Sequence record: OP870147.1
From: Escherichia phage vB_Eco_F31
Reading direction: 5' to 3' (one strand)
Length of the DNA stretch: 64,000 bases
The translations under genes and the position numbers were made by a program. Shown piece after piece: positions 8,422-56,400 of this stretch. The stretch's first letter is position 1. The number at the start of each line of letters is the position of its first letter. A model generated the notes under the pieces. That model did not search any database. It was not told the DNA's origin and was given only the letters and a program-made list of their open reading frames with translations.

Positions 8422-8637
8422 TTATCTCATTAAATTAAAATAAAAACGTCCATCCTCTTCAATACAGAACTCATATTCAACTGGAGTCCCGTTTATCGAA
8501 AATGACACGTCATGTGGGTTCAAAGGGTCGATGTCAAAATTAATTTTAAATTCACGACCCAACAGTTTTACCAAATAAGGGATTGCTTCGTCAAAAGGTT
8601 CTTCTAAGTAGTTAGAGATGTCAATTGTCATCCTCAT
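8422..8637 (-). CDS. hypothetical protein
   Basis: Track ORF 8422..8715 overlaps gp55 3' end; likely internal ATG start. Confidence 0.45.
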
Positions 8638-9178
8638 ATAAAAAATCCAAACTAGGCGAATCGCTAACAACTTCCTTCTTTTCAGCCCCAGGAGCTTTAT
8701 AAGCGGATTCTTCATAATGCGTCATTTTATCGTAGATGTCTTGAATAAACGTTTCATCTACCAACGCTACCATATCATCGTCATGACTGTCGTAGACATT
8801 ATGAACGAAGTAACTATATTTCTTTGCAACTTCCTTACGTTCTTTTTTGATACGTTGGACAAAAGCATTAAAACAAGCTCGAGTTATGTATGCATGTGGG
8901 TTATTGTACTTAGTTTCGTCGAAATTATGAAGTCCCTTAATAGAGGCTTCAATCCCATCTGCAATCATCTCCTGCTTCCAAGACTGGGTATATCCTGAAA
9001 AGTTGAAACGTTTGGACAGGCCTTCGGCGATAAGCATAATTGCTAAACCGATGGTATCATTCTGACGAATAATTTTGTTTGGGTCTTTATTATTTAAGAG
9101 CTCCTTTTTCCACTCGATTATAGCAGCGAGAAGCTCTTTGTTATTCACATAGTTATTTTTAGGTTTTTGTTCAGTCAT
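8621..9178 (-). CDS. 55: late-transcription sigma factor gp55
   Basis: 185 aa from ATG 9178 ([28 protein letters not shown]...), close to T4 gp55 from memory; SD AAGAGG. Confidence 0.93.
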
Positions 9179-9199
9179 AAGTACCTCTTGGCTCAATTC

Positions 9200-9243
9200 A
9201 TAGGTCTATTATATCATAATATTTAGAGACCTATCTTAAAGCA
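9200..9243 (-). promoter_or_regulatory. promoter/stem-loop cassette upstream of gene 55
   Basis: 8-bp inverted repeat ATAGGTCT/AGACCTAT encloses TATAAT; MotA-like TGCTTTA at 9237..9243. Confidence 0.4.
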
Positions 9244-9250
9244 CGAGATA

Positions 9251-9520
9251 CTATCGGAGCAAACAATAAGCCTGAAACACTTTTTCCATTAAACGTTTGA
9301 ACTCATGGATATCGATATAAAGCTCAGTAAGACCGGCATTATAAAGAAAATCTAAAAAGTTCTCATGTGTTTCGTTATAGTCGCCTTCGTTTAATTGAGA
9401 TACATGAGTTTCCCAAAAACCAACACCTTTAACGAATGGAAAATACGTGACTTTCATGTATTCGTCAACATAAAATTCGCCCAGCTTTTCTTCAGTTATA
9501 CTGATTCGAGTTAATTTCAT
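9251..9520 (-). CDS. hypothetical protein
   Basis: 89-aa ORF. Confidence 0.5.
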   Translation of the reverse strand: MKLTRISITEEKLGEFYVDEYMKVTYFPFVKGVGFWETHVSQLNEGDYNETHENFLDFLYNAGLTELYIDIHEFKRLMEKVFQAYCLLR

Positions 9521-11082: not shown

Positions 11083-11331
11083 TCAGAGGTTGATTGATAC
11101 AACGCGTTTGATAAAATTCACTTCACTTACTGAAAGGTCTTTAAGACCGATTGATTCTAAACGCTGATTAAGCGTCAACATCGGGATATAATCCCAATGA
11201 GTTTTATTTGCTTGATAAGTACGAACGCCATTAGCAATTTCAACATGCAAATCGGAAATGGTAACGAATACCGGTCGCTCGTCATTAACTTTAAGGGTTA
11301 GAACAACTTTCTTTGAATCTAAACTAATCAT
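11083..11331 (-). CDS. hypothetical protein
   Basis: 82-aa ORF. Confidence 0.5.
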   Translation of the reverse strand: MISLDSKKVVLTLKVNDERPVFVTISDLHVEIANGVRTYQANKTHWDYIPMLTLNQRLESIGLKDLSVSEVNFIKRVVSINL

Positions 11332-11510
11332 GGCTTAATTTCCTTCGCAATTGAACAGAAGATACTACGGTCACAAAGCATTTCACCAATTTCTGGATAT
11401 TTGATTGAACGGTACCAAACATCCAGGCTTGAAACTCTGGTTATCTGTACGGCATTACCATTGACAGAATAGTACTGGTCAACCTTAATTTCTTTATCTT
11501 CAATTGTCAT
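11328..11510 (-). CDS. hypothetical protein
   Basis: Start placed at ATG 11510 (MTIEDKEIKV...), SD GAGGAAAA, promoter upstream. Confidence 0.45.
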   Translation of the reverse strand: MTIEDKEIKVDQYYSVNGNAVQITRVSSLDVWYRSIKYPEIGEMLCDRSIFCSIAKEIKP

Positions 11511-11538
11511 TTTGTTTTCCTCTATAGCAGATGGTTTA

Positions 11539-11566
11539 ATCTTAACATATCTATCGAGGATGTAAA
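11539..11566 (-). promoter_or_regulatory. early promoter
   Basis: TTTACA-N16-TAAGAT upstream of SD and ATG 11510. Confidence 0.45.
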
Positions 11567-11660
11567 CTGTTTTATGAAAAATATTTTTGATTTGAGAGGG
11601 GCACAAGGAGATAGTGAAGTGAAGATTCCAATGGATTATATTAGAAATGAGATAAAGAAG

Positions 11661-15371: not shown

Positions 15372-15396
15372 ACCCTTACCTTAAATAGATAAGGGT
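15372..15396 (-). promoter_or_regulatory. hairpin sequestering gene 49 SD
   Basis: 7-bp repeat ACCCTTA/TAAGGGT; downstream arm is the SD for ATG 15366; AATAAATA late-promoter-like element just upstream. Confidence 0.5.
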
Positions 15397-15401
15397 ATTT
15401 A

Positions 15402-15827
15402 TTAACTTAAACGTCTTTCTAAATATTCAATGTATTCTGCGGCTGCTTGCATCAGGTTACCTTCATAGCCGTCGTTATTTTCTTGTCCGGCTAATTTAGC
15501 TAATGCATAAGAAATTCGTTCACCTTCGAATTCACCAAGTTTACTACCTAGCACATCTGCAATATCAGCCGAATCAATTTCTTCGAGTTCATCTATTGAA
15601 TGTGATTCCCAGAAGCACCAAAGAGAAGTATCACGGTCATAGATGCAAAGTTTCTCACCAGTGTTCAACATCACTTCAATAATGCCATGGTCGCCATAAC
15701 CATCTTCGGTCGTAGTACCAATTACCTTGATGATTGTATCTTTCTTTAATTCAGGAAACTTAACTTGCAGTTCTTCGTCGTCTTTAACAATCTTGAACCA
15801 CTTACCACGTGTGTCGGAAATATTCAT
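15402..15827 (-). CDS. hypothetical protein (at the T4 pin position)
   Basis: Start placed at internal ATG (MNISDTRGKW...); not recognised by sequence. Confidence 0.45.
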   Translation of the reverse strand: MNISDTRGKWFKIVKDDEELQVKFPELKKDTIIKVIGTTTEDGYGDHGIIEVMLNTGEKLCIYDRDTSLWCFWESHSIDELEEIDSADIADVLGSKLGEFEGERISYALAKLAGQENNDGYEGNLMQAAAEYIEYLERRLS

Positions 15828-20855: not shown

Positions 20856-21383
20856 TTATGCGTGAACCGTCTTTAAACGTTCTTCAAATTTCCGAAGAGT
20901 ACTAATACGTTCTGCTTTCTGTTTTGTATAGTTTGCAATACGTTCTGAAGTGAGAGCGTATCGTTCGTTTACTGTTTCTTTCATGAAGTCAGGGATTTCA
21001 CGAGAAGCTTTAATTTCATCAAACTTATCGAGTACTGCCTGGTCTTCAGCAATTAAATTTTCGTACATCTCGATATCTTTCTTGATGAAGTCGATATCTT
21101 CCTGGGTTACTTTGGATAAACGAGATGCTTTATCCTTTTTGTACTGCTCGTTAGTTTCACGAGACCAGAATAATGTACGTTTTTTGTTAGTGTTTTTGTA
21201 GACTTCCACAATTCCAACTGAATCGATGATAACAATCCAATTCCAGCGAGATTTGAAAATCTGACCTCCGTCCACGGTAATCTCGTTACCATAAGCAACG
21301 TCATTAAAGAACTTGCTTTGTGCTTCAGATTTAAATTTACCGTCGTTATAATTTACCAGGTTGAAAATATCTTTAGCGTTCAT
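20856..21383 (-). CDS. hypothetical protein
   Basis: 175-aa ORF. Confidence 0.55.
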   Translation of the reverse strand: MNAKDIFNLVNYNDGKFKSEAQSKFFNDVAYGNEITVDGGQIFKSRWNWIVIIDSVGIVEVYKNTNKKRTLFWSRETNEQYKKDKASRLSKVTQEDIDFIKKDIEMYENLIAEDQAVLDKFDEIKASREIPDFMKETVNERYALTSERIANYTKQKAERISTLRKFEERLKTVHA

Positions 21384-21410
21384 GTTTTACCTCCAGTAGT
21401 TGATAGGTCT

Positions 21411-21438
21411 ATAATAACATAACCATAGACCTTGTAAA
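21411..21438 (-). promoter_or_regulatory. early promoter / stem-loop cassette
   Basis: TTTACA-N16-TATTAT; AGGTCT/AGACCT repeat brackets the -10. Confidence 0.55.
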
Positions 21439-21441
21439 CAA

Positions 21442-26003: not shown

Positions 26004-26030
26004 AACGTTCTCCTCTAGTAAGTAAGGACT

Positions 26031-26058
26031 ACTATAACACAACCTGAGGAGAAGTAAA
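26031..26058 (-). promoter_or_regulatory. early promoter inside SD-sequestering inverted repeat
   Basis: TTTACT-N16-TATAGT; repeat CTCCTC (26010..26015) / GAGGAG (26046..26051) pairs the SD of ATG 26003. Confidence 0.55.
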
Positions 26059-26070
26059 CTGATAGATGCC

Positions 26071-26099
26071 AAAAAAAGCCCCAACCATAAGGAAGGGGC
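26071..26099 (-). terminator. rho-independent terminator (GCCCC...GGGGC cassette) after rI
   Basis: Minus strand GCCCCTTCC-TTAT-GGTTGGGGC followed by T7; 8 nt after stop at 26107. Confidence 0.7.
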
Positions 26100-26106
26100 T
26101 AGTAAA

Positions 26107-26409
26107 TTAGATAGATGTAGGCTCTAATTTTATTTTCATGAACTCGGCAAATTGTCTGGCAGTTTTTATGCCTTGTTCATGACATTCAAATGCATCATCA
26201 CAGGGGCTATTTTTGTAATGCTTTGCCATATACTTATAGAATTTTTCAGAATTCTCGACATTTTGAATTTCAAACAAAGTATATACATTTTTAATCCCTG
26301 ATTCCATAAAGTTATCAAAATATGGGTCGATATATGCAGTGCCAACAATAGGAGTTGTTACTGCAAAAAACCCCAGCATCACCATGACGGCTATCGCTCT
26401 TAAGGCCAT
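26107..26409 (-). CDS. rI: lysis-inhibition regulator RI (antiholin)
   Basis: 100 aa, N-terminal signal-anchor; MALRAIAVMVMLGF...DPYFDNFMESGI resembles T4 RI from memory; adjacent to tk. Confidence 0.85.
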   Translation of the reverse strand: MALRAIAVMVMLGFFAVTTPIVGTAYIDPYFDNFMESGIKNVYTLFEIQNVENSEKFYKYMAKHYKNSPCDDAFECHEQGIKTARQFAEFMKIKLEPTSI

Positions 26410-26421
26410 ATAGGCCTCCTG

Positions 26422-29198: not shown

Positions 29199-29657
29199 CT
29201 AGATTTTAATCACTGCTTTAGAAGCTTTTCCTGGTAGTCGTTTACTGTTAATAATAGCCATTCTACATTGAAGAGTCTTCATTTTGAATGCCGGATTTTC
29301 GCGACAAACTGTAAGTCCTAACCAAAGATTTCCGTCAGTTATTTCTAAACGGCCTGGACGATACTCGACACCTTCGACAAAATCTTCATCAACATCTGGA
29401 CGTGCCGGCATTGATAAAAATTCTGCAACTTCTTTAACGTGATTTTTTACTTTATGAAATAATTCAAAAACGTAATTCTCATCTATTTCTCTCTGGATGG
29501 CACGATCTAAGAGATGTTGAGAATACTTGATATGAAAGCCTGGTAGTCCAAGAGACTTTGCAGCATCTTTTATACCGGCATTTATTTTGCGGAACTCCGT
29601 TTCAAAGATTCGACGGAGTTTATTACGGCGGATAAAAACTTCCGAATTGATAGTCAT
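29199..29657 (-). CDS. regB: endoribonuclease RegB
   Basis: 152 aa; MTINSEVFIRRNKLRR...QHLLDRAIQREIDE...GRLEITDGNLWLG close to T4 RegB from memory. Confidence 0.92.
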   Translation of the reverse strand: MTINSEVFIRRNKLRRIFETEFRKINAGIKDAAKSLGLPGFHIKYSQHLLDRAIQREIDENYVFELFHKVKNHVKEVAEFLSMPARPDVDEDFVEGVEYRPGRLEITDGNLWLGLTVCRENPAFKMKTLQCRMAIINSKRLPGKASKAVIKI

Positions 29658-29685
29658 TTTGATTTCTCCTCTAGTTGACAGGTCT

Positions 29686-29713
29686 ATAGTAACACAACTA
29701 GAGGAGAAGTAAA
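29686..29713 (-). promoter_or_regulatory. early promoter inside 13-bp SD-sequestering hairpin (regB)
   Basis: TTTACT-N16-TACTAT; perfect repeat TCTCCTCTAGTTG (29665..29677) / CAACTAGAGGAGA (29695..29707); one arm contains regB SD. Confidence 0.6.
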
Positions 29714-29718
29714 CTACT

Positions 29719-32802: not shown

Positions 32803-33216
32803 TTAGTAAATTGATTTACCATAGTATTTGTACCAAGTCGGACGTTGAGCAATTTTTTCATCTAAGCGTGCTTGACTTATCGCAATGGACGCTTCGGACG
32901 GGACATAATTATTACGAAATTCGGCAGGGATGTCGGAAATATCCTGGACAGTCGTGTCCTTGATTTTGAAACCACGTTTCAAACATTCGGCTATTAGCTC
33001 GATTTGACGTAAACGTAAAAATTCGAGTTTGTCGTAAAAGAATGTTACGTGACCTGTGCCTAAGATAAATGTTGGAGAGATTTTAAAATCTTTTACACGT
33101 TTACCATTCTGAACATGTTTACGGACTGCACCAAATACGCGTGGTAATTCACGATACTCAGCCATAAGATGTTGGTCGGACAGTTCAGAAACAAGTGTTA
33201 AATTGATACGAGTCAT
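32803..33216 (-). CDS. denV: endonuclease V (pyrimidine dimer glycosylase) DenV
   Basis: From ATG 33216: [34 protein letters not shown]..., close to T4 DenV from memory. Confidence 0.92.
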
Positions 33217-33243
33217 AATTTCCTCCAAGTAGTTGATAGATGT

Positions 33244-33272
33244 ATAGTATCAAAGTCCTTGGAGGAAGTAAA
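33244..33272 (-). promoter_or_regulatory. early promoter inside SD-sequestering hairpin (denV)
   Basis: TTTACT-N17-TACTAT; 9-bp repeat TCCTCCAAG/CTTGGAGGA; one arm is denV SD. Confidence 0.6.
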
Positions 33273-33274
33273 CA

Positions 33275-34041: not shown

Positions 34042-34043
34042 AA

Positions 34044-34067
34044 TACCTCCCACGTTTATAGGAGGTA
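34044..34067 (-). promoter_or_regulatory. hairpin sequestering the lysozyme (e) SD
   Basis: 7-bp repeat TACCTCC/GGAGGTA with TATAAACGTG in loop; TATAAGTA and AATAAATA late-promoter-like elements adjacent. Confidence 0.55.
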
Positions 34068-34075
34068 TTTATTAC

Positions 34076-41183: not shown

Positions 41184-41489
41184 TTAATTTTTCCAACTTA
41201 ACAACTTGTAGTGTCCTTCATTCATACGTGGTTTATCCCAAGAAATACTAATATATGATTCACCGTCAATAGAAGTCGCCGGGTTTTTCTCTACCGTAAG
41301 ACCTTCACTTTCCAGCCATTCAATAGTATTTGAGCATAAATCAGAAGAACACCTCATCGGGAACCGGCAAGATTTTTCACCTTTAGCCGCAGTGTTATAC
41401 ATCTTTTCTAAAATACGCTTTTGCACGTTTTTAAAAATAGTTTCAGCAGATTCTTCAGATTTTTTATTCAGTTCAGTGTAAAGACTCAT
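41184..41489 (-). CDS. hypothetical protein
   Basis: 101-aa ORF. Confidence 0.5.
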   Translation of the reverse strand: MSLYTELNKKSEESAETIFKNVQKRILEKMYNTAAKGEKSCRFPMRCSSDLCSNTIEWLESEGLTVEKNPATSIDGESYISISWDKPRMNEGHYKLLSWKN

Positions 41490-41517
41490 AATATTCTCCT
41501 CTGTGGTTGATAAGTCT

Positions 41518-41545
41518 ATAGTATCATGTCCTTAGAAGAAGTAAA
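41518..41545 (-). promoter_or_regulatory. early promoter
   Basis: TTTACT-N16-TACTAT upstream of ATG 41489. Confidence 0.5.
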
Positions 41546-41579
41546 CATCTTTATGAAATATTTTTATGCCCTAGATGCC

Positions 41580-42823: not shown

Positions 42824-42900
<77 letters not shown>

Positions 42901-42903
42901 GAT

Positions 42904-42978
42904 TGGTGACCCTGGCTGGTTTCGATCCAGCTACCTATCAGTTATGAGCTGACAGCTCTCCCATTGAGCTACAGGGCC
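42904..42978 (-). tRNA. tRNA with CAU anticodon (Met, or Ile2 if lysidine-modified)
   Basis: 75 nt with CCA; acceptor GGCCCTG/CAGGGTC, anticodon loop CTCATAA, T-arm GCTGG/CCAGC; 3 nt from tRNA-Arg. Confidence 0.85.
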
Positions 42979-44480: not shown

Positions 44481-44484
44481 CTAC

Positions 44485-44772
44485 TTACAGAAGAGTTTTT
44501 GCAATAATTTTAAGCTGAGCTACAGAAATATGCTTAGCTTTAAACAGTGCAGTCTCTTCAGCCGGAGAGATAACAATAGTAGCGCCATCTTTCTTAGCGG
44601 ACCACCCATCCCCTAAGTAAACAGTACCTTTTACTTCTTCGCCGTCAACCAGACTAATCATTGGTTTACCCTCGCGTCCTTTATTTGCTTTAATAACTTC
44701 GGAAGTAAGGGTTGCTTCGGTCAGAGTAGAAACGTTAGCAAAAGGTGATATAAATTCTTTATAGGATTTCAT
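44485..44772 (-). CDS. internal protein (capsid-targeted)
   Basis: CTS-like MKSYKEFIS...LTE. Confidence 0.65.
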   Translation of the reverse strand: MKSYKEFISPFANVSTLTEATLTSEVIKANKGREGKPMISLVDGEEVKGTVYLGDGWSAKKDGATIVISPAEETALFKAKHISVAQLKIIAKTLL

Positions 44773-44806
44773 TTTATTTCCTTGAGGTTGTTTATTTGAT
44801 AGGACG

Positions 44807-44835
44807 ATAGTATCACACCAACATCCTTATGTAAA
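44807..44835 (-). promoter_or_regulatory. early promoter
   Basis: TTTACA-N17-TACTAT upstream of internal-protein gene. Confidence 0.55.
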
Positions 44836-44849
44836 CTGTTTTGTGAAAA

Positions 44850-45539: not shown

Positions 45540-46274
45540 TTACCTTAAGATTGTTTCAATTTTAGAATAAAGCTCTTCTAAAGAGCCGTCGTTTGTAATA
45601 ACTAAATCGCCTTCTTCAATAGGCAACCCAGCTTCTGTAATATGTTTATCGGTGGATTCCGTACCAGAGCGAACCACATGAATAACTGTAGCACCCATCG
45701 CTCTAGCGGTTTCCATTTCATGGACTTGACGTGTATCGGTTACGACATAGTAATCGAAATCACTTCCAATATAATCCATATAGTTTAATGCAAAAAGCTT
45801 AACCCAATACATACGGTCAAATAAATTAACGACAACATCCGTACCGAGGGCTTGCATAAGACGGCGGATTGACCATGTGTCGTTGATATTATTTATAGCT
45901 TCACGCAGGGCTTCATATGGTTTAATATCTAGATACGAATATCCACCTTCTAACGATGATAATACTTTAACATTATTAATTGGTAAATATTGACTTTGCA
46001 AATAAATTAGCGCTTCTTCCAATAATTCAATAACATCCAACTTATTGAGATTTAATGGTGTTTCACGGTCATATCCAATGCCTTCAAAGTATTCGTATTT
46101 CAACTCTGTGAATACATCAGGATTTTCAGCACGCCTACGTCCCCAGGCTATTGCTAAAGCGTCTTTAATTGGATACGCTAATTGGTATTTTACGGATTTA
46201 AAGTTTGAATTGATGTAATCAGCAGTAGTGTCTTTACCGCTACGTTTGATGCCACTTAAAAAGATTAGCTCCAT
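45540..46274 (-). CDS. 1: deoxynucleoside monophosphate kinase gp1
   Basis: 244 aa; P-loop SGIKRSGKDT; MELIFLSGIKRSGKDTTADYI... as T4 gp1. Confidence 0.93.
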   Translation of the reverse strand: MELIFLSGIKRSGKDTTADYINSNFKSVKYQLAYPIKDALAIAWGRRRAENPDVFTELKYEYFEGIGYDRETPLNLNKLDVIELLEEALIYLQSQYLPINNVKVLSSLEGGYSYLDIKPYEALREAINNINDTWSIRRLMQALGTDVVVNLFDRMYWVKLFALNYMDYIGSDFDYYVVTDTRQVHEMETARAMGATVIHVVRSGTESTDKHITEAGLPIEEGDLVITNDGSLEELYSKIETILR

Positions 46275-46301
46275 AGGTTTTCCTCATATAATTTATGAGT
46301 G

Positions 46302-46330
46302 ATTATAACATACGGAGCTAGAAGCGATTA
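46302..46330 (-). promoter_or_regulatory. candidate promoter for gene 1 inside start-codon-sequestering repeat
   Basis: TATAAT at 46307..46302 preceded 12 nt upstream by CGCTTC; 7-bp repeat TAGCTCC (46266..46272) / GGAGCTA (46314..46320) pairs the first codons of gene 1. Confidence 0.4.
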
Positions 46331-48288: not shown

Positions 48289-48299
48289 GTTGTCCTCCT

Positions 48300-48307
48300 T
48301 ATAAATA
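48300..48307 (+). promoter_or_regulatory. late promoter for gene 53
   Basis: Exact TATAAATA, 43 nt upstream of gene 53 start. Confidence 0.65.
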
Positions 48308-48314
48308 GTATTAT

Positions 48315-48322
48315 TATTTATA
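48315..48322 (-). promoter_or_regulatory. late promoter for gene 4 (divergent)
   Basis: Exact TATAAATA on minus strand, 27 nt upstream of ATG 48288. Confidence 0.65.
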
Positions 48323-48349
48323 CCAATTTCATATTGGAAGGAGACTATC

Positions 48350-53455: not shown

Positions 53456-56400
53456 CAGTAAAAGCGCCAGCAGTCACAAGTCTCAGAATATCCAAGTTGT
53501 CCGCTAACCAAGTTCAAATACGCTGGGATGACGTTGGTGCTAATTTCTACTATTTCGTAGAAATCGCTGAGACTAAAACGGCAGACGGGGAAATTATTCC
53601 CCCTGCCAGCTACAGATGGATAAATTTAGGATATACTCCTAATAGCAACTGGTTCGAAAATAGTTTAGACCCATTAACTTCTTATATTATTCGTGTATCA
53701 ACTGCAGCCGAAGGCTTCGAGAGATCTGATTGGGTATATACCGAAATATTTGAATCATTTCAGACTAACGCGTATACATTTCAACATATGATTGAAATGC
53801 AATTGGCTAACACTTTTATTAGAGAAAAATTTACAAATAACAACATGGCTTATGTTGATTTTAATAACGACACTATAATGGCAGCTCTAATGAATGAATC
53901 GTTCCAATTTAGCCCTGCTTATGCGGATATTTCATCTATTAAAAATTTCATTATTGGCGAAAATGAGTATCATGAAATTCAAGGTTCGATTCAACAGGTG
54001 TGTCATGATATAAACCGTGTTTATTTGATGGAATCCGAAGGAATTCTTTATTTGTTTGAACGGTATCAGCCTGTGGTTAAAGTCTCTAATGATAAGGGAC
54101 AAACCTGGAAATCGGTTAAATTGTTTAATGACCGTGTAGGGTATCCTGTATCAAGAACAGTGTATTACCAGACAGATTACACCACGTATGTTCTTGGGTA
54201 TGATAAATTATTTTACGGCCGTAAATCAACTGACGTTCGTTGGTCTGCTGATGATGTGAGATTTAGTTCTCAAGATATAACATTTGCTAAAATTGGTGAC
54301 CAGTTAAATTTAGGATACGATGTAGAAATATTTGGTAACTACGCATCATTACCTGCTAACGTATCACGTATTGCAGAAGCTATCGTTTGCAATGACGATT
54401 ATGTATACGTTGCTGCTCGAGATAAAGTTCGTTTTATTAAAACTAGTAATGCCCCTATTGATTCAGACCCGTTATCTCCGACATATTCCGAACGTTTGTT
54501 TGAACAAGAAACATTTAACATCACAGGTAACCCTAAGGCAGTTTGCTATAAAATGGATTCTGTCGGTGGTAAAATATTTGCACTGATTATCGGTGAAGTT
54601 GTTAATCTTAATGATGACCCGAGGACCACTCCTATTGTTGATTCTGCTGATAAGGGTGTTTACGTTCTAGACCATGATGCTGGCACATTTAAACGTGTGT
54701 TTGGTAATACTGAAGAAGAACGTCGTCGTATTGAACCTGGGTACACCAGTATGTCTACTGATGGTGTTGAGTTATCTATATCATCTAGTAATTTTAAATT
54801 TTTAGAATCTGATATTGTTGATGACCCAAAAACACAAATCAAGTACGGTTTAATCGGTGCTGTTAAATATGAGTATCCTCGCGAATGGTTGGCTGATAAA
54901 CATTATCATATGATGGCATTTATTTCAACTGAAGACTCTCAATGGGAATCGTTCACTCCCCAACCAATGGAATACTATGCTGAGCCATTCTTTAGTTATT
55001 CTAGAAAGTCTGGTACTCGTTGTTGGATTAATAACTCAGACAAAGCCGTTGTAATTTATTCTGATTTACTTTACACTAAGGTTATTGAGAATCATCCACT
55101 TAGTTCTTCAGACCGTGAAGTTCATGAATATTGGAAGGACGGTGACTGTACAATAGTGATGCCTAACGTAGATTTCACCGGATTTAAAAAATATGCATCC
55201 GGCATGATTTTCTATAAATCATCAGGTGAGATTATTTCTTATTATGATTTTAGTTATCGTGTTAGAGATAATGTTTCTATAATTTGGAAGCCTACTAATA
55301 TATTCTTAACAGCATCGTTACAAAACCAAGAAAAAGATACCACATGGACTCCTGTAGAAGAGAACGGCATTACGGACCCAGATTTACGACCATTGCTCAC
55401 TACAATGATGCCGGAGTCTTATCTTTTAGATAATACAAACTTCGAAGCATTCTGCGAGGCTTATATTCAGTATCTTTCTGACGGTTATGGGACTCATTAT
55501 AACAACCTTTTAAATCTTATTAAAAATCAATATCCGCGCGAAGAACATGCGTGGGAATACTTATGGTCTGAGATTTATAAACGAAACATTTACTTAAACG
55601 CCGAAAAACGCGATTTAGTGTCTCGTTTCTTTGAATCAAGAAGTTATGACTTCTATTCAACTAAAGGAACTGAAGCATCATATAAATTCTTGTTTAAAGT
55701 GCTTTATAACGAAGATGTTGAAATTGAAATTGAATCTAGTTCCGGGACCGAATATGATATCATCATTGAATCTGATTCGTTGACAGAAGATTTGGTCGGA
55801 CAAACCATATACACCGCGACAGGACGTTGTAATGTGACGTATATCGAGAGAAGTTACTCTAAAGGTAAATTACAATGGACTGTAACAATTCACAACCTCT
55901 TAGGACGTTTAATCCAAGGTCAAGAAGTTAAAGCTGAAAGACTCCCGGGTTTTGAAGGTGAAATTGTTCGTGGTATTAAAGGTAAAGAGCTTTCTCAGAA
56001 CAACATCGATTACATAAATCGTGGTAGAGCATACTATGTAATGAAGATTAAATCTAAACTTCCATCATCTCGTTGGAAATCAGACGTATTACGTTTTGTT
56101 CATCCGGTTGGATTTGGATTTATCGCAATTACCCTTCTCACAATGTTTATTAACACCGGATTAACACTTAAACATGTTGAAACCATTATTAATAAATACA
56201 AAAACTATAAGTGGGATTCTGGATTACCGACTAAATATGCAGACCGAGTGGCTAAATTAGACCCACAAGGAAATGTTGAGTTTGACCCTATTACAGGTAA
56301 AGCGATATATGAAATAGGCCCTATGGCTGGTCAAGATTATCCATTGCCTGAAGATTATAACGCTGAAAACAATAACTCCATATTTCAAGGTCAACTTCCA

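Follow-up and report, generated by a model that had tools for sequence, protein, structure and literature searches.

Candidate promoter-gated hairpins over the ribosome-binding sites of early and middle genes in a T4-like phage

In Escherichia phage vB_Eco_F31, the early promoters of regB and denV and a middle-type promoter of gene 1 are nested within inverted repeats, the 3′ arm of which contains the Shine-Dalgarno (SD) sequence or the first codons of the gene located downstream. The best explanation of this arrangement, which we consider probable, is that the repeats form promoter-gated RNA hairpins that mask the ribosome site; the start sites used in the phage, the read-through RNA and the effect on translation we infer. 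In T4, genes e, soc, 49 and I-TevI are masked by a hairpin, with e being repressed ca. 100-fold (PMC3014915), and a 2010 review of T4 mobile elements states that the genes under such control “are all late genes” (PMC2988022). No statement of an early-promoter version was found in the literature, though several key older papers lay beyond reach, and masking of genes other than late ones appears not to have been described before.

Inverted repeats around the promoters of the window

The window (the whole stretch of 64,000 nucleotides analyzed here) is Mosigvirus DNA, from the RB69 group of T4-like phages, and shares 99% identity with phage pEB20. From position 1,000 to 48,300, nearly all genes are carried by the minus strand. 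Early promoters were called by the T4-type pattern GTTTAC-N16-18-TAnnnT, for which a scan of the window returned 21 matches (3.0 ± 1.7 expected), 18 of them on the minus strand and directly 5′ of gene starts. A generic σ70 scan was dropped: it yielded 29 sites, with 29.4 expected, and missed the regB and denV promoters. The GenBank record of T4 contains no promoter or stem-loop features. When perfect inverted repeats were sought with arms of 10 bp or more and a loop of 4–45 nt, 18 seed matches at 8 distinct sites were obtained, compared to 5.4 ± 4.2 in shuffled sequences.

The original prediction had placed promoters inside hairpins in front of six genes: regB, denV, the gene in the rI.-1 position, gene 1, e and 49. 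The arm coordinates given for the first four proved to be exact reverse complements, and the hairpins of e and 49 were also found in place. In all six repeats (minus strand), the 3′ arm is the SD or the first codons. Four of the repeats are longer than first described: 14 bp at regB, 10 bp at denV, 8 bp at the rI.-1-position gene and 9 bp (with one G·U pair) at gene 1. The further claim, that a −10 element sits in the loop, holds for regB and denV (TACTAT in both), the rI.-1-position gene (TATAGT) and gene 1 (TATAAT), but not for e and 49, where a late-promoter-like AATAAATA overlaps the 5′ arm. The units are as follows:

29709..29714, minus strand: regB −35 element GTTTAC, T4-type early consensus, with a 17-nt spacer next
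29695..29708, minus strand: 5′ arm of the regB hairpin, UUCUCCUCUAGUUG (anti-SD), occupying the promoter spacer right after the −35 element
29686..29691, minus strand: regB −10 element TACTAT, in the hairpin loop; predicted start site ca. 29679-29680
29664..29677, minus strand: 3′ arm of the regB hairpin, CAACUAGAGGAGAA, holding the SD and a RegB-type GGAG; AUG at 29657-29655
29199..29657, minus strand: regB coding sequence, 152 aa, annotated as RegB in the 99% identical Mosigvirus pEB20
33220..33273, minus strand: denV unit; −35 element 33268-33273, 5′ arm UUCCUCCAAG 33258-33267, −10 element TACTAT 33244-33249, 3′ arm CUUGGAGGAA 33220-33229
32803..33216, minus strand: denV coding sequence, with AUG at 33216
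26008..26059, minus strand: unit of the rI.-1-position gene (59 aa, DUF7438); −35 element 26054-26059, 5′ arm UUCUCCUC 26046-26053, −10 element TATAGT 26031-26036, 3′ arm GAGGAGAA 26008-26015, AUG 26003
46266..46326, minus strand: unit of gene 1 (dNMP kinase); MotA-box-like CGCTTCTA 46319-46326, outer 5′ arm UAGCUCCGU 46312-46320, −10 element TATAAT 46302-46307, outer 3′ arm AUGGAGCUA 46266-46274
34043..34073, minus strand: unit of lysozyme gene e; late-promoter-like AATAAATA 34066-34073, 5′ arm AUACCUCC 34061-34068, 3′ arm GGGAGGUAU 34043-34051, AUG 34041
15372..15403, minus strand: gene 49 unit; AATAAATA 15396-15403, 5′ arm ACCCUUAUC 15388-15396, 3′ arm GGUAAGGGU 15372-15380, AUG 15366

The regB repeat (29664-29677 with 29695-29708) is the longest short-range perfect inverted repeat of the window, and the gene itself is ca. 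76% identical to T4 regB. Its leader runs, along the coding strand, GTTTAC-UUCUCCUCUAGUUG-ugu-TACTAT-agaccugu-CAACUAGAGGAGAA-aucaaa-AUG. Within the 3′ arm lie GAGGAG in regB and the rI.-1-position gene and GGAGG in denV; in gene 1 the arm covers AUGGAGCUA, which is the start codon and two codons, and an inner stem (46294-46301 with 46281-46288) lies over the SD. A late (gp55, TATAAATA) internal promoter is present neither in regB, denV and the rI.-1-position gene, which carry GTTTAC-N17/18-TAnnnT, nor in gene 1, which carries a MotA-box-like element and TATAAT; AATAAATA is found at e and 49 only. The proposed extension of the e/49 arrangement to several early genes thus stands for regB and denV, which have T4-type early promoters, but has to be widened for gene 1, the promoter of which is of the MotA (middle) type.

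Rfam covariance models run over the whole window reached the gathering score for two tRNAs only, and these two genes (42827-42978, minus strand) are its only Rfam matches. No U-tract was found 3′ of the SD-masking stems and none of these stems was called terminator-like. Intrinsic (Rho-independent) terminators were rejected as an identity of the masking stems since they lack a U-tract, RNase III sites were rejected by inference since the stems are too short, and a chance origin of the hairpins was considered and rejected as well.

Another arrangement involving SDs was observed at 48292-48345, in the intergenic region from which late genes 4 and 53 diverge: their SDs are mutually reverse-complementary (GUCUCCUU with AAGGAGGAC) and TATAAATA motifs lie between them. 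RNA crossing this region on either strand would mask an SD, a near-automatic outcome of opposed SDs.

Folding of leaders and replacement of stems among relatives

The opening cost of a ribosome site was defined as the energy required to free positions −13 to +3 from pairing when −80 to +15 is folded, and was calculated for the 138 called starts of the window (median 4.95 kcal/mol). Gene e ranked first (17.1 kcal/mol), gene 1 second (16.3) and regB third (15.5); 49 (14.0) and denV (12.9) came next among real genes, within the top eight, and the rI.-1-position gene stood at 10.0. When RNA was taken from the predicted start site, the cost decreased to 2.9 kcal/mol for regB, 2.8 for denV and 2.6 for the rI.-1-position gene, and to 2.2 and 2.3 kcal/mol, respectively, for the established cases e and 49. 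In general, short RNAs from predicted start sites fold at ca. −2 kcal/mol with z above 0 (regB, denV, gene 1) and their sites open at 1–3 kcal/mol. The predicted difference between long and short forms amounts to 7.5–12.6 kcal/mol for the early cases, compared to 11.8–14.9 kcal/mol for e and 49. The long RNAs of regB (−23.2 kcal/mol, z −4.06), denV (−19.9 kcal/mol, z −3.79) and gene 1 (−24.3 kcal/mol, z −6.34) were each more stable than all 200 dinucleotide-shuffled versions. For the rI.-1-position gene, z was −0.29 and 73 of 200 shuffles were as stable, which is not beyond chance when taken alone.

Leaders of regB were drawn from IMG/VR contigs, giving 32 distinct sequences with RegB identity down to ca. 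40%. All 32 contain a T4-type promoter, with a distance from −35 to AUG that is typically ca. 59–61 nt and reaches 65 nt in divergent leaders. Masking, in the sense of a long-short difference above 5 kcal/mol, is predicted in 28 of the 32, and 26 are significant against shuffles at p ≤ 0.05. The stems themselves are made of at least 10 different sequences: the pair UUCUCCUCUAGUUG/CAACUAGAGGAGAA of the window is replaced by UUUUCCUCUUGACUG/CAGUUAAGAGGAGAA (two G·U) in T4, and by AUCUCCUUUUAGU/ACUAAAAGGAGAU, UCUCCUGUAAG/CUUACAGGAGA and AUCCUCAUUUG/CAAAUGAGGAU in further relatives. A plain MAFFT alignment was dropped because it put paired positions out of register, and constructs anchored at the SD core were used instead. 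With the arms so anchored, 12 of 15 pairs vary on both sides. The covariation score was 0.357, compared to 0.152 ± 0.024 for shuffles (none of 500 reached it) and 0.07–0.11 for slid registers, in a register set by each sequence's own fold, which leans towards structure.

Masking is likewise predicted in 25 of 26 denV leaders that have a T4-type promoter, at 10–23.5 kcal/mol for the long and 0.8–3.6 kcal/mol for the short form. The 5′ arm either adjoins the −35 element or overlaps the end of the −10 element and the discriminator, as in TATGAUGUCUUCC with GGAGGACAUC, and it is upstream of the expected start site in every masked arrangement. This position is not independent evidence, because a leader of ca. 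20 nt forces the arm to be upstream of the start. In some variants of both regB and denV, SD pairing is down to 5 bp around an inner hairpin. A different structure was observed in front of denV in jumbo phages (L039, L041, L045 and L047; contigs of ca. 350 kb), where a terminator hairpin contains the −35 element (GGGTTGACttcgGTCAGCCC, then a T-run and TATAAT); this is a true overlap of terminator and promoter, without SD masking. The abstract of a 1986 sequence paper reportedly mentions potential stem-loops before ipIII, ipII, denV and orf61.9, and structures at early promoters may have been noticed long ago, without a tested function.

The gene 1 stem is built from AGUUUCAU and AUGAAACU in T4-type phages and from UAGCUCCGU and AUGGAGCUA in the window. 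A change of codon 2 from lysine to glutamate is therefore compensated in the promoter spacer. Hinton's table (PMC2988021) puts the mapped start of the T4 middle promoter P1 at 75393. With the gene 1 AUG at 75374, 19 nt further on, this start falls inside the gene 1 hairpin loop.

The rI.-1-position gene is a weak case. Its relatives in IMG/VR, like those of the gene with AUG at 41489 described below, are near-identical ones only. A strong terminator-like hairpin with a U-run (agccccuuccuuaugguuggggcuuuuuuu, 26070-26100) was observed directly 5′ of its promoter, and since this terminator is just upstream, read-through into the gene is perhaps low. The prediction that short transcripts free the SD and read-through transcripts occlude it is thus supported in silico by energetics and covariation for regB and denV and by folding and the T4 P1 start for gene 1, but receives weak support from the rI.-1-position gene, given its z value and its relatives. 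Close by, at rI (start 26409), a hairpin at 26390-26415 pairs the spacer between SD and AUG with codons 2–3 (AGGCC uauau GGCCU), and T4 rI has it too. It is contained in long and short transcripts alike and is a constitutive structure rather than a promoter-gated one.

Palindromes at promoters could also act on the DNA level, through a cruciform, promoter opening or protein binding, with RNA consequences being secondary. In keeping with this, the −10 element is in the loop at 12 of 18 early-promoter repeats, and T4 early promoters are reported in the literature to have extra consensus positions that are unexplained. However, among in-register non-Watson-Crick positions of 78 distinct helices, there were 41 G·U against 16 A·C (p = 0.0013), and even when helices were picked on the antisense-strand fold, the sense-type wobble was still ahead (36 versus 26). 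Folding is also more stable for the sense than for the antisense strand, by a mean of 1.8 kcal/mol (p = 4 × 10⁻⁵). A bias towards G·U on the sense strand is unexpected for a DNA palindrome and therefore points to selection on sense RNA; since only ca. 20 nt separate the start site from the AUG, the selected sense RNA must be the read-through transcript. In addition, the stems of gene 1, e and 49 extend into the SD, AUG or first codons, remote from promoter contacts. We therefore regard an effect on the DNA level as highly improbable.

Early promoters with and without masking hairpins

The 18 strict early promoters of the window were folded. Five of them mask the SD, seven have a hairpin that leaves the SD free, and six are without such a hairpin. 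Among the 15 genes with an early promoter, five (regB, denV, the rI.-1-position gene and genes with AUG at 41489 and 11510) had a long-short difference above 5 kcal/mol. The threshold was passed by only 3 of the 109 genes for which no promoter was detected, and these three include gene 1, the MotA-type promoter of which is missed by the pattern. The early genes with AUG at 41489 and 11510 were absent from the original list. Their promoters are:

41494..41546, minus strand: SD-masking early promoter with GTTTAC; UUCUUCU pairs with AGAGGAGAA (one G·U), −10 element TACTAT in the loop; gene 41184-41489
11518..11567, minus strand: SD-masking early promoter; UCCUCGAUAG pairs with CUAUAGAGGA (9/10), −10 element TAAGAT in the loop; gene 11328-11510

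In positions 1-77000 of T4, the same threshold was exceeded in 9 of 28 detected promoter-gene pairs, namely modB, nrdC.8, regB, e.8, motB.2, denV, mrh.2 and mobD.5, together with gene 1 and its middle promoter P1. Swapping upstream halves among T4 promoters abolishes the effect (p = 5 × 10⁻⁵). The same permutation was not significant in the window alone (p = 0.13), because CU-rich spacers can pair with any SD. The anti-SD words CTCC/CCTC occur between the −35 element and the start site in 4 of 18 promoters of the window and 6 of 27 of T4, versus 6–7% of background 30-nt windows, i.e., 3–4 times more commonly than in the background. A scan with the pattern GTTTACTTCTCCT... was set aside since its matches were mostly due to chance, often being the reverse complement of an SD on the opposite strand.

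In the pattern scan, further genes with spacer-SD stems of 11–14 bp were seen in six other T4-like contigs (L123, L138, L153, L177, L189 and L191). One such stem, GTTTAC-UUCUCCUCAUG...CAUGAGGAGAA, precedes a gene whose product starts with MKIYRVES; the apparent orthologue, starting with MLVYRVER, has UUCUCCUCUGGUU...AACCAGAGGAGAA. At 9180-9252 of the window, in front of gene 8621-9178, there is a nested double hairpin: outer arms AGUAUCUC/GAGGUACU mask the SD, inner arms AUAGGUCU/AGACCUAU enclose TATAAT, and the opening cost of the long form is 13.4 kcal/mol.

The seven promoters with a free SD define a second class of hairpins, at −35 hexamers ending at 44836, 44481, 37863, 36568, 25610, 21439 and 10865 (minus strand). 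Here the spacer holds the 5′ arm, the loop holds the −10 element and the 3′ arm is located at ca. −6 to +3, e.g., AUAGGACU...AGUCCUAU. In T4, such hairpins are found at ipI, ipII, ipIII, dmd, mobD.2, motB and trna.4. Masking accounts for 5 of the 18 early promoters of the window but leaves these 7 unexplained; because their hairpins leave the SD free, selection for a hairpin over the −10 element needs no SD masking. One idea is that the second class serves as a barrier to 3′-exonucleases after RegB cleavage. The ipI leader hairpin over the −10 element (window 44772-44844, T4 73878 region, L283 and L284) is kept with differing stem sequences, GAUGAGGUAGUG.../...CCUCAUC in T4-type phages and AGGAUG/CGUCCU in the window, and this replacement suggests that the second class is under selection too; no ipI relatives were found in IMG/VR. 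At nrdC.8 the class is switched: T4 (53885-53943) masks the SD by GUUCCUCUG with CGGAGGAAC, and the window (21383-21439) has a hairpin over the −10 element only (AGGUCUAU with AUAGACCU).

Cassettes in which an early promoter is followed by a stem-loop, SD and ATG have been described in T4-like phages as PeSLs, with terminator activity reported for one of them (Arbiol 2010, Comeau 2014). Like the units described here, they are intergenic and have AT-rich DNA upstream of an early promoter, a stem-loop in the −35/−10 interval or across the −10 element, and then SD and ATG; they lie among small genes of variable regions. Their stems have been read as terminators/attenuators and recombination sites; “ribosome” and “translation” occur zero times each in the 2010 paper. 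On this basis, any stable stem over an early promoter might be selected, whether as an attenuator, pause site, 3′-exonuclease barrier, processing signal and/or recombination cassette. Pairing with the SD would then be incidental, the G-rich SD being the handiest partner in an AT-rich intergenic region of ca. 60 nt. The SD-free hairpins at 7 of 18 promoters of the window and at many in T4, the ipI hairpin kept in spite of its different sequence, and orthologues that switch hairpin class all agree with such a generic role.

We nevertheless consider a generic role, which is the main alternative to masking, unlikely, and an incidental pairing with the SD equally so. The SD stays the partner through many independent stem replacements and two positions of the 5′ arm, in 25 of 26 denV and 28 of 32 regB leaders; the lack of U-tracts and terminator-like calls sets the masking stems apart from PeSL stems; at gene 1 the stem pairs the start codon and coding sequence, with a codon change being compensated; and anti-SD words are specifically enriched in promoter regions. 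The PeSL definition also includes a well-conserved repeat of ca. 100 bp that mediates recombination between copies. Three second-class hairpins, those at 44481, 37863 and 25610, are near-identical to one another, and the stems of regB, denV and gene 1 are unique sequences.

Proposed mode of action and relation to known systems

The favored explanation, promoter-gated masking, would work as follows. The 5′ arm is situated 3′ of the −35 element (or MotA box) but ahead of the start site, mostly in the promoter spacer, which would be little constrained by promoter function, and the SD and/or start codon form the 3′ arm. RNA from the nested promoter would start in the loop and lack the 5′ arm, so that its leader of ca. 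20 nt would be unstructured and ribosomes could load. RNA from an upstream promoter would contain both arms and fold during synthesis, hiding the ribosome site, and the cistron would be poorly translated. The gene would then be translated only while its own promoter fires. For regB, denV and probably the rI.-1-position gene, this would be right after infection; gene 1 would be translated in the middle mode, and e and 49 late. In T4, the middle promoters Pvs.7 (64382) and PipIII (66724) are upstream of regB and denV (PMC2988021), and read-through RNA is therefore expected across both genes; in the window, no terminator-like sites were found between upstream early promoters and regB or denV.

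As in the late-masking system of T4, which includes e, 49, soc, I-TevI and other homing-endonuclease genes, the SD/AUG is in the 3′ arm and transcripts from the gene's own promoter would lack the 5′ arm; read-through RNA is translationally silent in the T4 system. The e and 49 units of the window are direct orthologues of T4 late-masking units. In contrast, the early and middle cases use σ70 early or MotA middle promoters instead of gp55 late ones, the 5′ arm of the early cases is encoded in the −35/−10 spacer, and their timing is proposed to be reversed, with translation in the earliest period and silencing of read-through from later promoters. A similar principle has been reported for σ54 “insulators” by Levy et al. 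(bioRxiv 10.1101/086108), in which a CT-rich motif within the promoter pairs with the SD and silences translation of read-through RNA only. Those motifs are 3–5 nt long and come from host σ54 promoters and synthetic libraries, whereas the phage stems are of 8–15 bp, belong to σ70 or MotA promoters and show deep covariation.

According to the literature, the regB early promoter is off after 2–3 min, regB is tightly regulated and RegB cuts its own SD. This autoregulation works on the GGAG that is part of the regB leader hairpin and, as the hairpin would, restricts RegB synthesis to the first minutes. It relies on a nuclease that acts in trans on promoter-proximal RNA; the hairpin would work in cis, on RNA that reads through, and the two would be complementary. 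One may also suppose that the hairpins shield the SD GGAG from RegB (and RNase E/G) on long polycistronic RNAs, with mRNA stability as the main effect. RegB cuts GGAG in early ribosome sites and is blocked by structure, and 16 resistant T4 RNAs with a structured GGAG are known from the literature; the regB SD is itself cleaved by RegB, and the GGAG of T4 denV and gene 1 is resistant or nearly so in vivo (PMC1702504). However, Durand et al. ascribe the resistance of denV and gene 1 to the sequence 3′ of GGAG and not to structure, and changing that sequence made denV a substrate (PMC1702504). Moreover, a masked SD is untranslatable anyway, so its protection would be useless to that cistron, the outer stem of gene 1 covers AUG and not GGAG, and the e and 49 hairpins act late in infection. 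Shielding from nucleases as the main role is accordingly improbable in our judgment.

Promoter-gated masking plausibly extends the logic of e and 49 to roughly one early promoter in three (5 of 18 in the window and ca. 8 of 27 in 77 kb of T4). More tentatively, one can envisage that across Tevenvirinae some one in three early and middle promoters contains, within its spacer or discriminator, an arm able to pair with the downstream ribosome-binding site, so that the promoter of origin alone would license translation (of regB, denV, modB, gene 1 and others). This might amount to a general and evolvable “promoter-of-origin code” that parts immediate-early from delayed-early/middle expression, with the second class of −10 hairpins doing something else on read-through RNA; we see such a code as possible rather than probable.

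T4 is the reference system for timed gene expression in phages, and a 2022 omics study still called the post-transcriptional control of its early mRNAs an open question. If true, promoter-gated masking would explain how RegB, DenV and ModB are confined to the first minutes of infection in spite of later read-through, and would assign a role to some of the “extra” sequence of T4 early promoters. It would also offer the promoter spacer as a translation insulator against read-through in engineered phages and operons.
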